The position numbers and the translations under genes are program-made. 64,000 bases of DNA from an uncultured delta proteobacterium (GTDB lineage Bacteria > Desulfobacterota > Binatia > UBA9968), in contig CAWDPO010000046.1 of the NCBI GenBank assembly GCA_963804165.1, positions 160,001 to 224,000 on the forward strand. The letters run 5' to 3'. Shown here piece by piece: positions 15,763-20,065 of the stretch (position 1 is its first letter; each line of letters starts with the position of its first letter). The notes below the pieces were generated by a model. That model saw nothing but the letters and a program-made list of their open reading frames with translations, searched no databases and was not told the origin of the DNA.

Positions 15763-15975
15763 ATGGGGGAATTTGGCAAGACGCTGATCTATCTTGGCAT
15801 TCTCTTGGTGATTGTCGGAGTGATTTTTTCGCTGGCGGGCAAGTTGCCCGGGCTGGGAAATTTGCCGGGGGATATTACCATCCAACGGGAGCGCTTCACG
15901 TTCTATTTTCCGCTTACGACATGCATTCTCATCAGCGTGATCATTTCTCTTGTCCTTTATTTTTTTAGAAGGTAG
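15763..15975 (+). CDS. DUF2905 small membrane protein
   Basis: LGNLPGDI..FYFPLTTCILIS motif; typical position after ruvB. Confidence 0.85.
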   Translation: MGEFGKTLIYLGILLVIVGVIFSLAGKLPGLGNLPGDITIQRERFTFYFPLTTCILISVIISLVLYFFRR

Positions 15976-15997: not shown

Positions 15998-18244
15998 TTG
16001 TTCAGGGCGCTTATGGAAGCAGCCAATCCCGCCAACTACGTCGAGCAAAGCCTCAAAATCGAGGAAAACAAACGCCGCAAGCGCGAGGGCATCGTGATCC
16101 TCGTCACCGCGCTGATGGTTGCGGCGCTGATTTTTTTCGAAGTGCAGCTGCCTGATGTTGCCCCGGAGTATTCGCTCGGCAGCAATATTGTTTTTTTCCT
16201 ACTGATCAATGTCAATATTATCCTGCTGGGTTTGCTCGTCTTTCTGGTCGTTCGCAACTTGGTCAAGCTGGTCGTCGAGCATAAGCGGCGCATGCTCGGT
16301 TCTCGCCTGCAGGCGCGCTTGGTTGTGGCCTTTGTCGCCATGGTACTGGTTCCCAGCGTATTAATGTTCGTGATCGCGGGAGGTTTGTTGCGGCGGTCGT
16401 TTGACCGTTGGTTTGATTCCAAAGTCGAAAGCGCGCTGCAAGGGTCGTTGGAAATCGGCCAAACCTACTACCAAAACTCCGCTAACAATGCGCTTTTTTA
16501 CGCGCGTCAACTCAGTCAGCGGATCACGGCGGAAGGGCTCGTCGACCAGCCACGCTTGGCCGAGCTGAAAAAGTTCGTCGAGACCAAGCAGCGCGAGTAT
16601 AATCTCGGCACGGTGGAGCTGTTTTCGCCCGACGGTCAGCCGTTCGTAGTGGCCTTCAATCAGCAGGTGCCGACCGGGGTCACGATCAAGCCGGAAAGCG
16701 AATTTCTAAATCGGGCTTTGCGCGGTCTCGAAGTGACGCGCACTCAAGCGTTCGGCGACGGTGATGTGATTCGCGGCGGAGTGCCGATTTACGCTCGCGA
16801 TAAGCGGATCATCGGCGTGGTGGTGGTCGACTATTATGTGCCCAAAAGCATTTCCAAGCGGGCGATCCAAATTTCTCAGTCCTATGAACAGTACAAGTAT
16901 CTGACGTTTCTCAAGGCGCCGGTCAAAAATAGTTATCTACTGACCATGCTGTTGATTACGTTGGTGATCATTTTCGCGGCGACGTGGTGCGGTATCTATT
17001 TGTCCAAAGGGATCACCGTGCCGATCCAAAAACTCGCTGAGGGCACGCATCAGGTGGCGCAGGGAAACTGGGATTATAAAATTGAGGCCGGGGGGGATGA
17101 TGAGATCGGCGTATTGGTCAATTCGTTCAATCAGATGACCGCTGATTTGAAACGGATTAAGCTCGAGCTCGAGCGGCGCGGCAACGTGGTGCAGACCCTG
17201 TTGGCGAACATCGCTGCCGGCGTCGTATCCGTCGACCCGTCCGGTAAGATCACCACTTGGAACAAGGCTGCCGAGCAGATTTTAGGAGTGGCGGTGGATC
17301 GCGCGTTGGGAAAACACTACCAAGAGGTGTTTCGCGCCGAGCCCTTGCGCGGGATTCGCGAGATCGTGGACAGCGTCAACGGAGGCGAGAGCGTCGAACG
17401 AGAGATCAAGCTGTCGTTGCACGAGCAGTTGCGCAACGTGGTGGTCAGCGCGGCGACGCTGCACGACGACGACGGTTCAATCCTAGGCATGATGCTCTTT
17501 CTCGAGGACATCACGCAAATTCAAAAAGTTCAAAGGATGGAGGCCTGGCGCGAGGTGGCGCGGCGTATCGCGCACGAAATCAAAAATCCGCTCACGCCGA
17601 TCCAGTTATCCGCGGAGCGGCTGCGCAAGCGCTATGCGAAGATCTTGGCGGAGGACGGCGAGATTTTCGACAAGTGCACCACGACGATCATCCAGCAGGT
17701 GGACGATCTTAAAAAACTCGTGAATGAATTTTCCCAGTTTGCCCGCCTGCCGTCCGCTCAGCTTATGTCGCACGATCTCAACGAAATCGTCGGTGAAGCT
17801 TTGGTGCTCTTCAAGGAAGGGCATTCCGGTATTCAATTTCAATTTCGCCCCGGCGCGATCCCTCCGGTGGAGCTTGATCGGGACCAGATGAAACGAGTGC
17901 TGATGAACCTCTTGGACAACGCGGTCGCCGCCGTACAAAGCAGCGGAGAAATCAAGCTGGCGACGAACCACGAAAGCGCGCGCGGCAAGGTGACTCTGGA
18001 AGTCGCGGACAACGGCTGCGGACTAGCGCCTGAGATTAGAGCTAAGATTTTCGAGCCCTATTTTTCCACTAAGGAAAACGGCACGGGCCTGGGTCTAACC
18101 ATCGTAAGCCAGATTGTTGAAGATCATCGTGGCTATATTCGCGCATGGCCCAACGATCCCCAGGGGACGCGTATTATCATCGAATTGCCGGCGGGGCAGG
18201 ATACGGTTATTCCGGTTACGGTGAAAAATGCGCTACACTCTTAA
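15998..18244 (+). CDS. ntrY: NtrY-like membrane sensor histidine kinase (TMs, HAMP, PAS, HisKA, HATPase)
   Basis: AWREVARRIAHEIKNPLTPIQLSAERL H-box; LVNEFSQFARLP; FEPYFSTK..GTGLGL. Confidence 0.9.
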   Translation: MFRALMEAANPANYVEQSLKIEENKRRKREGIVILVTALMVAALIFFEVQLPDVAPEYSLGSNIVFFLLINVNIILLGLLVFLVVRNLVKLVVEHKRRMLGSRLQARLVVAFVAMVLVPSVLMFVIAGGLLRRSFDRWFDSKVESALQGSLEIGQTYYQNSANNALFYARQLSQRITAEGLVDQPRLAELKKFVETKQREYNLGTVELFSPDGQPFVVAFNQQVPTGVTIKPESEFLNRALRGLEVTRTQAFGDGDVIRGGVPIYARDKRIIGVVVVDYYVPKSISKRAIQISQSYEQYKYLTFLKAPVKNSYLLTMLLITLVIIFAATWCGIYLSKGITVPIQKLAEGTHQVAQGNWDYKIEAGGDDEIGVLVNSFNQMTADLKRIKLELERRGNVVQTLLANIAAGVVSVDPSGKITTWNKAAEQILGVAVDRALGKHYQEVFRAEPLRGIREIVDSVNGGESVEREIKLSLHEQLRNVVVSAATLHDDDGSILGMMLFLEDITQIQKVQRMEAWREVARRIAHEIKNPLTPIQLSAERLRKRYAKILAEDGEIFDKCTTTIIQQVDDLKKLVNEFSQFARLPSAQLMSHDLNEIVGEALVLFKEGHSGIQFQFRPGAIPPVELDRDQMKRVLMNLLDNAVAAVQSSGEIKLATNHESARGKVTLEVADNGCGLAPEIRAKIFEPYFSTKENGTGLGLTIVSQIVEDHRGYIRAWPNDPQGTRIIIELPAGQDTVIPVTVKNALHS

Positions 18245-18263
18245 GAGAAAATCAGGAGGATCT

Positions 18264-19565
18264 GTGGAAGAACCGGCGGCGCCAAAGACGATTTTAGTTG
18301 TGGATGATGAGGACGGAGTGCGCGAGTCTGTGCGCGAAGTCCTAAGCGACGAAGGTTATCGGGTCGTGGACACCGCCGATTGCACCCAGGTGCTGCGGAT
18401 CATTAAGGAACAGAAACCCGAGCTGGTTTTGCTCGACATCTGGATGCCGCAGATGGACGGGATCGGTTTACTCAAAGAGATCAAGACCCAGGAACCGGAC
18501 ATTAACGTCGTCATGGTTTCCGGCCACGGCAATATCCACACGGCGGTTACCGCGACCAAGTTTGGTGCCTTTGATTTTATCGAGAAGCCAGTGTCCCTGG
18601 ACGGGCTTTTGTCAACTGTGCAGCGTGCTTTGGGGGAAATGCCCGGAGCAAGCGAGCCTAAGCACGCCGACAGTCGGGCGAGAAGATTGCGCAGTGCGAG
18701 GGGCATGTCCACATCGAGAAACGTACCCCTGAACCAGAGCATTAAGCAGCGGACTTTGAAGAAGAGCGTGGTGCTTTCCGGACAGGGTCTACACTCCGGC
18801 GTGAAAACCGGACTCATTTTGCATCCATTGCCGCCGCATAACGGAATCCTTTTCACCGGCATCTCAGGTGATGTTACCGTACCCGCCCACCTGGACTATG
18901 TGGGCTCGACGGGTTACGCGACTTCGCTGCGCTCTAAAGATTACGCGGTCGGCACCGTCGAGCATTTGCTCGCGGTGTTACATAGCTACAGCATCACCAA
19001 CCTTCTGGTCAAGGTGCAGGGCGAAATCCCGATCTTGGATGGTTCTGCGGTGGAGTTTTGTCAGGCCATCGAAGAGGCCGGGATCCAGGAGGAAGACGAG
19101 GAATGTGCGGCGATCGTCATCGAACGGCTATACCGGGTAGGTGCCGAAGGCGGCGAATCGATCAGCATCGAGCCCGCGGAAGGGTTTTCCGTGCGCTACG
19201 TTTTGCGCTATCCGAAGCCGGTCGGCGAACAGGAACATACCTACGTGTTTCAGGGAGCCGAATATTTCAAAACCGAGATTGCCCCTGCGCGCACGTTCGG
19301 ATTTCTCAAGGACATCGCGCAGCTGCAGAACATGGGATTGGCGAACGGCGGCCGGCTCAGTAATTTCATACTGATCGACGATGAGAAAATCGTCAACACC
19401 GAATTGCGTTACCCCAATGAGTTCGCGCGCCACAAGATCCTCGATATTCTCGGCGATCTATATCTGCTCGGCAGACCGATTCGCGGCGCGGTGACGGCCG
19501 TGATGACCGGACACTCGGACAATATTGCTTTGCTGCGCCAGGTTCGCGAGGGCATGAAACTCTAG
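18264..19565 (+). CDS. lpxC: Response-regulator receiver domain fused to UDP-3-O-acyl-GlcNAc deacetylase (REC-LpxC)
   Basis: REC: VVDDE, LLDIWMP, SGHG, FIEKP. LpxC: QRTL..GLHSG, TVEHLL, EIPILDGS, APARTFGF, HKILD..GDL, GH. GTG at 18264 follows AGGAGG. Confidence 0.93.
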   Translation: MEEPAAPKTILVVDDEDGVRESVREVLSDEGYRVVDTADCTQVLRIIKEQKPELVLLDIWMPQMDGIGLLKEIKTQEPDINVVMVSGHGNIHTAVTATKFGAFDFIEKPVSLDGLLSTVQRALGEMPGASEPKHADSRARRLRSARGMSTSRNVPLNQSIKQRTLKKSVVLSGQGLHSGVKTGLILHPLPPHNGILFTGISGDVTVPAHLDYVGSTGYATSLRSKDYAVGTVEHLLAVLHSYSITNLLVKVQGEIPILDGSAVEFCQAIEEAGIQEEDEECAAIVIERLYRVGAEGGESISIEPAEGFSVRYVLRYPKPVGEQEHTYVFQGAEYFKTEIAPARTFGFLKDIAQLQNMGLANGGRLSNFILIDDEKIVNTELRYPNEFARHKILDILGDLYLLGRPIRGAVTAVMTGHSDNIALLRQVREGMKL

Positions 19566-19615: not shown

Positions 19616-20065
19616 ATGGATTCCCAAGGCAATTTTCCGCGACTTTTTACTATTGACGAAGCTAACGGTTTGCTGCCTACACTGCGACCGCTGGTGGAGC
19701 AGATTCTGGAGAACATCCGGCGCCTGAAGGGCGCCAGTGAAACCGTGATTCGCCGAGAAGCGCTCGACCCCGAGGCGCCCAATCTCATGAATCGGCTGCG
19801 CGACGACGCCGAGGTTGCGCGGTTGGTTGGGCAGGTAAAGGGTTGGGTCGACGAAATCAATAGTTATGGCTGCGTGTGTAAGGGGGTGGAGCAGGGGTTG
19901 ATCGATTTTCCCTGCCTGTTCGGCGCGGAAGTCGTTTTTCTTTGCTGGCAGATTGGTGAGTCGAACGTAGGTTTCTGGCATCGCATCGAAGACGGTTTTG
20001 CGGGCCGCAAACCCTTACTCGACGGTGAAACCGCCGATCCCGAAACCAAAGTCTCCTATCACTGA
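19616..20065 (+). CDS. DUF2203 family protein
   Basis: FTIDEAN..LP; GLIDFP..LCWQIGE..WH....GFAGRKP. Confidence 0.85.
   Translation: MDSQGNFPRLFTIDEANGLLPTLRPLVEQILENIRRLKGASETVIRREALDPEAPNLMNRLRDDAEVARLVGQVKGWVDEINSYGCVCKGVEQGLIDFPCLFGAEVVFLCWQIGESNVGFWHRIEDGFAGRKPLLDGETADPETKVSYH

Follow-up and report, generated by a model that had tools for sequence, protein, structure and literature searches.

The locus described here raises the question of whether a membrane sensor can act directly on LpxC, the enzyme of the committed step in making lipid A. It lies in a 64,000-nucleotide stretch of DNA from an uncultured delta proteobacterium of the Binatia, a bacterium from soil (GenBank assembly GCA_963804165.1, contig CAWDPO010000046.1, positions 160,001 to 224,000 of the forward strand), which we call the window; the source genome measures 7.5 Mb in 46 contigs and is 81% complete. 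In the window a gene for an NtrY-like membrane sensor histidine kinase is followed, on the same strand, by a single gene in which an NtrX-type receiver (REC) is joined to a complete LpxC. From its sequence and its relatives the product of this gene appears to be a response regulator with an enzymatic output, the committed lipid A enzyme, derived from a dedicated lpxC regulator.

The kinase gene, identified by its open reading frame (ORF) and Pfam domains, encodes 748 amino acids at 15998..18244 on the plus strand, and its TAA stop is at 18242-18244. The frame that carries the fusion is open without interruption from 18228 to 19565 (+) and would give 445 amino acids from an ATG at 18228. This ATG overlaps the kinase gene, and the true start is probably the GTG at 18264, since an AGGAGG Shine-Dalgarno sequence can be read directly 6 nt upstream of it (18252..18257, +), the distance from the kinase stop becomes a 19-nt gap, and the product matches the database's own gene call, P0001, which has 433 amino acids and is 100% identical. 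With this start the fusion gene occupies 18264..19565 (+), an assignment that rests on Pfam and NCBIfam matches as well as on the Shine-Dalgarno sequence and the database call.

Pfam identifies two domains in the protein, Response_reg (PF00072) at residues 22-131 (109.6 bits, cut-off 30.2, E 1.2e-31) and LpxC (PF03331) at residues 174-439 (274.7 bits, cut-off 27, E 1.1e-81; both in the 445-residue numbering). E-values of this size cannot have arisen by chance. No Pfam match to an AAA+ or HTH domain was obtained anywhere in the fusion. The receiver lies at 18291..18620 (+) on the evidence of Response_reg, the NCBIfam NtrX model and structure matches. NtrX (NF051870) is its best NCBIfam receiver match, at 138.7 bits against a cut-off of 600, with residues 21-185 aligned to model positions 3-169, and among solved receiver structures 4d6x and 5m7n, which we take to be Brucella NtrX, come nearest to it. 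The protein is derived from an NtrX-type regulator, yet is not itself a member of the NtrX family, as the AAA+ and HTH parts are missing. The acidic DD pair, D58, S86 and K108 of the receiver are all present; the phospho-acceptor aspartate is encoded at 18435-18437 (+) and corresponds to D70 of the 445-residue ORF and D58 of the 433-residue protein.

The LpxC domain (UDP-3-O-acyl-GlcNAc deacetylase) is complete and occupies 18741..19565 (+), as judged by Pfam, NCBIfam and structure alignment. It exceeds the cut-off of the NCBIfam lpxC model TIGR00325 (245.9 bits against 187.25) and matches the solved LpxC proteins of P. aeruginosa, E. coli and A. aeolicus with E-values between about 1e-48 and 1e-52. 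Its TVEH, ARTFGF, HKILD..GD and GH motifs are identical, residue by residue in the alignment, to those of P. aeruginosa LpxC. These hold what we take to be the zinc and catalytic positions of the enzyme (E78, H79, T191, F192, H238, K239, D242, D246 and H265 in E. coli numbering), and the domain is predicted to be catalytically intact. Between receiver and enzyme lies an Arg-rich linker of about 40 residues (18621..18740, +; residues 132-171 of the 445-residue ORF), which has no Pfam match, is predicted to be disordered, and varies in length and sequence across the family; no remnant of an HTH is detectable in it by Pfam. The initial annotation, made from the letters and their translations, had given the kinase and fusion frames at exactly these positions and had described an NtrX-like receiver with these motifs, a basic linker of about 35 residues, a full-length LpxC with intact catalytic residues and no AAA+/HTH output. 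All of this is borne out here, with the start moved to GTG 18264 and the linker measured at about 40 residues.

An AlphaFold2 model of the 433-residue protein, built from a 28-sequence alignment, reached a mean predicted local distance difference test (pLDDT) score of 86.1 and a predicted template-modelling (pTM) score of 0.82, and only linker residues 127-155 fell below a pLDDT of 50. The LpxC part of the model superimposes on solved LpxC structures with template-modelling (TM) scores of 0.83-0.95 by target length and a root-mean-square deviation of 1.4-2.2 Å over about 275 columns, whereas by query length the LpxC domain alone amounts to a TM score of only about 0.6. Set against this value, the pTM of 0.82 hints that in the model the two domains have a defined relative placement. 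No solved chain covering both receiver and LpxC was found among the structure matches. A complex prediction in which the receiver (residues 1-128) and LpxC (residues 158-433) were treated as separate chains gave a score of 0.01 against a mark of 0.32, which is evidence neither way.

The fusion gene is the single LpxC match in the 81%-complete genome, in which a second stand-alone lpxC was sought, and LpxK is present. Since this is the only LpxC match and LpxK accompanies it, the fusion has, on gene content, to be the working LpxC of the cell. The joined state is a feature of the lineage. In a survey that took in 41 genomes of the order, among them that of the window, the fusion is full length in 34, is cut by a contig end in 6, and is represented only by receiver matches in one (G019, 91% complete); one unpublished genome, G005, is among the 41, and no claim depends on it. 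Both Pfam domains were found in 120 of 120 homologues among the matches listed. Near-identical contigs from soil sequencing runs of three studies also cross the junction (X1 at 18563-18923, X4 at 18597-18844 and X2 at 18603-18753); one of the three runs may be the source sample of the window.

Two side observations concern the lipid A genes. In the source genome the LpxB match has internal stops (G000 contig C2, about 109,400-112,900; L110, 3958-7410), and the region between the kdtA-like gene/lpxK and beyond is broken into frames of 100-190 amino acids. Indel errors or a pseudogene could account for this; we favour an indel error as the likely cause, and such errors may also explain the 81% completeness of the 46-contig assembly. 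A more distant genome, G074, holds both a short receiver-LpxC fusion (C11:39470-40762; L019, confirmed) and a free LpxC of ~330 residues (C33:20144-20962), so that, beyond the order to which the window belongs, another LpxC can accompany the fusion.

The kinase is a multi-pass membrane protein whose N-terminus is the NtrY_N transmembrane/periplasmic region. NtrY_N (35.6 bits, cut-off 23.2), HAMP, PAS, HisKA and HATPase_c all score above their Pfam cut-offs. No NtrY-named NCBIfam model is found among the 25 best of its 94 matches, of which AtoS is the best (274 bits, cut-off 646); the label NtrY-like is given on the basis of domain architecture and of the NtrX-like partner. We found no second full-length NtrY-like kinase in the genome, no NtrX above its model cut-off and no regulator beside the kinase. 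In five closed genomes of the same phylum that carry a free lpxC there is one clear full-length homologue of the kinase each (39-43% identity), and in all five a REC-AAA(-HTH) regulator directly follows it. Since a regulator stands after the kinase in these genomes, and the window's genome has neither a second full-length NtrY-like kinase nor an NtrX above the model cut-off, the fusion takes the position of the regulator in a system of the NtrY type. This is the place that the initial annotation had assigned to it.

Linkage of kinase and fusion was counted over fetched loci with at least 2300 nt upstream, the kinase being sought within about 4.5 kb. In the window's own clade (14 rows, all short forms, support 96) an NtrY-like kinase lies directly upstream on the same strand in 13 of 13 DNA-backed members, and ruvB often precedes the kinase. 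Over all of these loci a kinase is found upstream of 15/32 short fusions and 4/9 long fusions, and of 0/34 true free-standing lpxC genes. The adjacency to ntrY raised in the initial annotation is thus complete within the clade and is found at fewer than half of the short-form loci overall, while the fused architecture itself is widely conserved in the order, and its reality, which had been made to depend on the absence of a chimera, is backed by the junction-crossing contigs. A further arrangement was seen at three unfused loci, where lpxC, an NtrY-like kinase and a REC-AAA regulator follow one another on one strand (L078 293-5273, L079 1304-6365 and L111 2864-8246); they come from two Acidobacteriota metagenome-assembled genomes (MAGs) and from a closed genome that belongs to the phylum of the window. 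In G304, one of the five closed genomes, lpxC precedes the kinase frame by about 630 nt on the same strand. The unfused order echoes the S. fumaroxidans arrangement in the part of Rajeev et al. used here (PMC3333781).

An exhaustive search of 1.84 billion cluster representatives returned 1746 proteins at E ≤ 1e-30, free-standing LpxCs included. The best 150 of these 1746 hold 18 short fusions (412-461 residues), 15 long fusions (650-736 residues) and 4 intermediate ones. The long forms consist of REC, a sigma-54-type AAA+ domain, an AAA+ lid, a Fis-type HTH and LpxC; three long sequences inspected by eye lack both the Walker B Asp-Glu and the GAFTGA loop. Two intermediates, P0127 and P0131, resemble REC-HTH_8-LpxC, with HTH_8 at 25.7 bits in P0131 and 20.9 bits in P0127 against a cut-off of 22. 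Among 301 genomes of the phylum, the short fusion was found in 41, LpxC ends frames of 554-837 residues in 25 (three of them verified as long fusions), about 10 have candidate frames of ~465 residues, and most others have a free LpxC. Frames of 996-1423 residues in GC-rich relatives were considered as kinase-REC-LpxC triple fusions and rejected, as Pfam showed them to be spurious N-terminal extensions overlapping the kinase out of frame.

Named public records that hold the fusion carry the labels Syntrophobacter(aceae) (77% and 73% identity), Binatia/Binataceae, 'Deltaproteobacteria', Thermoanaerobaculia, Holophagae, Aminicenantes, Terriglobia, Thermodesulfovibrionia, Desulfocapsaceae and one 'Pseudomonadota' MAG, and long forms stand in records of Nitrospinota, Desulfomonile and Thermodesulfobacteriota. 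By record label the family extends over Binatia and Thermodesulfobacteriota-type MAGs, Acidobacteriota, Nitrospinota and Nitrospirota, with the taxon labels of MAGs being only as good as the binning of their depositors. Seven genomes of a single genus of the phylum (family f48, genus g79: G119, G186, G217, G247, G277, G305 and G333), all 99-100% complete, gave no fusion or LpxC match at E ≤ 1e-30; these organisms may lack lipid A synthesis, or their LpxC may be highly divergent.

A maximum-likelihood tree of the LpxC domain was calculated from 120 rows, comprising 56 short, 26 long, 2 intermediate and 36 free-standing forms, by a quick search with support from the Shimodaira-Hasegawa-like approximate likelihood-ratio test (SH-aLRT) only. 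Excluded from it were eight near-duplicate loci of the same genus (L003-L006, L008-L011), the frameshifted L032, L100 with a split LpxC, L042 as a near-copy of L037, the partial L057, and 26 of 43 free-standing loci. All 84 fused LpxC rows fall into one clade (SH-aLRT 95). Two representatives classed as alone, P0196 and P0209, lie inside this clade and are maybe truncated; no other free LpxC is placed in it. Short and long forms interleave in the fused clade: the intermediate P0131 is sister to the long P0135 (support 100), and the short P0142 lies within a long pair (support 100). An approximately unbiased (AU) test rejects the short forms as a single clade, with a difference in log-likelihood (lnL) of 346 and p-AU of 3.8e-49. 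This interleaving, together with the rejection of a single short-form origin, argues that the AAA+/HTH modules were lost several times while receiver and LpxC stayed joined, where loss rather than repeated gain follows from the parsimony of domain architecture and not from the root of the tree. On the simplest account, a complete NtrX-like regulator became fused to LpxC once, in the distant past, and AAA+ and HTH were then lost repeatedly. Such a history would be expected if the link between receiver and LpxC is functional.

Conservation of the two halves was then compared across the family. In 28 short forms of 33-92% identity, the acidic D15, S86, K108 and the LpxC catalytic residues are invariant, and D58 is kept in 27 of 28. 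The phospho-acceptor is kept in 81 of the 83 fused members with an extractable receiver; the automatic count had given 79, and two of its four apparent exceptions proved to be extraction errors. Of nine LpxC active-site positions counted, seven (E, H, H, K, D, D, H) are identical in 84/84 fused members, and the remaining two are T in 80 and S in 4, and F in 82 and Y in 2. Both halves are jointly under purifying selection. Five LpxC positions, residues 183, 189, 250, 266 and 317 of the 433-residue protein (window about 18810-19214), are nearly fixed in the fused forms and different in free LpxCs: G183 is present in 99% of fused against 3% of free proteins, K250 in 98% against 0% (free proteins mostly having Glu here) and C266 in 92% against 6%, and L189 and P317 are likewise specific to fused LpxCs. 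These residues may be candidates for contact with the receiver or mere markers of the clade.

We give a probability of roughly one half to the reading that kinase and fusion form a two-component system in which the output of the regulator is an enzyme, the kinase phosphorylating the receiver and the state of the receiver changing LpxC at the protein level. The NtrY-like membrane kinase would sense an envelope or periplasmic cue and set the phosphorylation state of Asp58 in the receiver, and this state would alter the amount of LpxC activity by acting on the protein itself. The likeliest routes would be intramolecular gating over the flexible linker or dimerisation driven by the receiver. While the architecture, the pairing with a kinase, the intact phospho-acceptor and catalytic residues, the sole LpxC and the NtrX-like descent are observed, the phosphotransfer from the kinase and the effect of phosphorylation on LpxC are what we infer from sequence. 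Phospho-control fits the joint conservation of both halves and the repeated loss of the transcription modules between them. The strongest indirect argument is that the DNA-binding and AAA+ parts were seemingly discarded several times and a receiver that retains the phospho-acceptor residues stayed on LpxC. A bolder proposal is put forward more tentatively: the kinase could be a sensor of the envelope or of lipopolysaccharide (LPS) that switches LpxC catalysis directly, a self-contained feedback loop on lipid A synthesis that would replace FtsH/LapB/YejM proteolysis and that would have evolved several times, independently, by reducing a dedicated lpxC transcription factor to a mere phospho-switch on the enzyme it once controlled.

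Several observations weigh against phospho-control of the enzyme. The short P0142 and the long P0149, sisters in the tree, have Asn and Ser in place of the phospho-acceptor, and P0149 also lacks the acidic pocket and the Lys, yet both keep all LpxC catalytic residues. They would each represent a pseudo-receiver still joined to a working enzyme, which implies that the enzyme can function with a dead receiver. In addition, 17 of 32 short-form loci, mainly in an Acidobacteriota clade, have no nearby NtrY-like kinase, and kinase adjacency is thus lineage-specific. The linker is disordered and poorly conserved, and no rigid coupling of the domains is evident. Shared ancestry may also be enough to account for the five residues specific to fused LpxCs.

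The first alternative is that phosphorylation sets the abundance of LpxC, with the receiver as a conditional degron or an adaptor-like handle (compare RssB and CpdR) for FtsH, Lon or ClpXP. As set out in the sections used here of a 2025 Journal of Biological Chemistry review on lipid A regulation (PMC12444477), LpxC of E. coli is controlled mainly by proteolysis, and Lon has been suggested in some alphaproteobacteria. In the window protein the disordered Arg-rich linker could be an entry site for an unfoldase; the chain ends directly after the LpxC fold with no additional C-terminal tail. No convincing LapB was found in the genome, where the best match to NF008755 reached 33.9 bits against a cut-off of 430, and a PF18073 match considered as LapB was rejected because it is RadA. 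This search is weak, however, as the E. coli control also fell under the NF008755 cut-off and the genome is 81% complete. No result points specifically to proteolysis, and we regard this explanation as unlikely.

A second alternative is that the receiver is an evolutionary leftover on a constitutive LpxC, the kinase having another partner or treating the receiver mainly as a sink for phosphate. The fusion is clearly the descendant of a transcription factor that was linked to the enzyme it targets, the P0142/P0149 subclade combines a dead receiver with an intact LpxC, and many short forms have no adjacent kinase. A leftover should decay, however, and here 81/83 members, diverged to 33% identity, still have the acidic pocket, phospho-Asp, Ser/Thr and Lys, and the receiver survived several independent deletions of the neighbouring AAA/HTH modules. 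The genome has no other full-length NtrY-like kinase, and there is no regulator next to the kinase. This leaves the leftover a small chance of being right.

A third alternative assigns the receiver to localisation or scaffolding: docking to the kinase, or phospho-dependent dimerisation, would bring LpxC to the inner membrane, the site of its lipid substrate and of the enzymes that act after it, with catalysis ungated. NtrX forms dimers, and 4d6x and 5m7n, the nearest solved receivers, belong to this type. The kinase, as a multi-pass membrane protein, could provide an anchor, and a LapB homologue of N. meningitidis has been suggested to localise LpxC at the inner membrane (in the sections used of PMC12444477). 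The short forms without an adjacent kinase would need another anchor, and we consider this explanation improbable. The last alternative, an assembly chimera or frameshift artefact joining separate ntrX and lpxC genes, is refuted by the two-domain homologues, the full-length copies in 34/41 genomes of the order and the contigs from three studies that cross the junction, and finds no support in one relative with receiver and LpxC out of frame, the long-read MAG locus L032 (2258-5759), whose kinase and ruvB are also split and whose split fusion probably reflects assembly indels and not an unfused state.

The genes around the fusion are ordered ruvC, ruvA, ruvB, DUF2905, histidine kinase, REC-LpxC frame, DUF2203 and queG on the plus strand. 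The DUF2203 gene (19616..20065, +; Pfam DUF2203, E 6.5e-33) begins 50 nt 3' of the fusion; it is found 3' of the fusion in 8/9 same-genus loci fetched, plus L020 and L026, and is a conserved neighbour that may belong to the operon. A DUF2905 gene of 70 codons (15763-15975, +; Pfam 85.8 bits), whose product resembles a small membrane protein, separates ruvB from the kinase. As it falls under the 80-residue minimum for ORFs, a spurious 107-residue frame stands in its place in the ORF list. No sigma-54 promoter of the kind found at Desulfovibrio lpxC was detected near the operon within two mismatches, the window-wide count being below chance, and sigma-70-like and terminator-like sites occur at chance level only.

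The regulation of LpxC outside enterobacteria is largely an open question. If phospho-control is correct, outer-membrane synthesis would be under a new and directly testable form of control, by a receiver that is part of LpxC and answers to a membrane kinase, in a large family that extends over several phyla and is widespread in uncultured soil and sediment lineages. The family also offers an evolutionary series, in which a transcription factor would have been fused to its target enzyme and its DNA-binding parts then lost repeatedly, and which would amount to a natural experiment in shifting control from gene to protein.

The initial annotation knew of no characterised example. For the fusion this stands: literature searches outside subscription journals and supplements found no publication describing it, and it is apparently undescribed in print. 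Left unmentioned was the dedicated transcriptional two-component control of lpxC published for Desulfovibrio. In the parts of these reports used here, lpxC is the one target of the D. vulgaris regulator DVU2934, whose gene accompanies that of the kinase DVU2931, and S. fumaroxidans has lpxC beside its orthologous operon (Rajeev et al. 2011, PMC3333781). In D. alaskensis, lpxC, a gene with a sigma-54 site, is the only one upregulated when the kinase Dde_3000 is mutated (Kuehl et al. 2014, PMC4045070). On these published descriptions, the window system resembles DVU2931/Dde_3000 and DVU2934/Dde_3003, in the same broad lineage, as a sensor kinase with an NtrC/NtrX-type regulator dedicated to lpxC. 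The Desulfovibrio system is described as transcriptional, its regulator binding upstream of lpxC at a sigma-54 promoter. In contrast, the receiver of the window is covalently joined to LpxC, AAA+ and HTH are gone, and no sigma-54-like site lies near the operon.

Alphaproteobacterial NtrY/NtrX (Brucella, R. sphaeroides, C. crescentus) provides the second comparison. In R. sphaeroides, loss of NtrYX leads by an indirect route to an 8.8-fold rise in lpxC transcripts and to more LPS (PMC7240162, in the part used here). The 2025 review covers the alphaproteobacterial NtrYX cases, in which NtrYX affects the envelope and lpxC transcripts, and the controls of LpxC it names in the parts used are proteolysis, MurA binding and indirect transcriptional effects; in its main text the words 'receiver', 'fused', 'fusion' and 'Desulfovibrio' occur zero times each (PMC12444477). 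The two published knock-outs that raise lpxC expression, of Dde_3000 and of NtrYX, are compatible with systems of this kind restraining lipid A synthesis in laboratory growth. The window shares with the alphaproteobacteria the kinase architecture and a receiver closest to NtrX. Unlike the fusion, NtrX is described as a DNA-binding regulator with a large regulon and an indirect effect on lpxC.

CheB (REC-methylesterase), PleD and WspR (REC-GGDEF) and RpfG (REC-HD-GYP) have an N-terminal receiver, a flexible linker, a C-terminal enzyme and a histidine-kinase partner. The window fusion most probably follows the general logic of these regulators. The outputs of these known regulators are signalling enzymes, whereas the output here is an essential biosynthetic enzyme of lipid A. 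With the FtsH/LapB/YejM system of E. coli, as presented in the sections used of the review, the window system shares the same committed step, LpxC, and the same presumed purpose of matching lipid A to the state of the envelope (PMC12444477). In E. coli this is achieved by regulated proteolysis through separate proteins, whereas in the window a candidate regulatory module is contained within the LpxC polypeptide itself and is wired to a histidine kinase.

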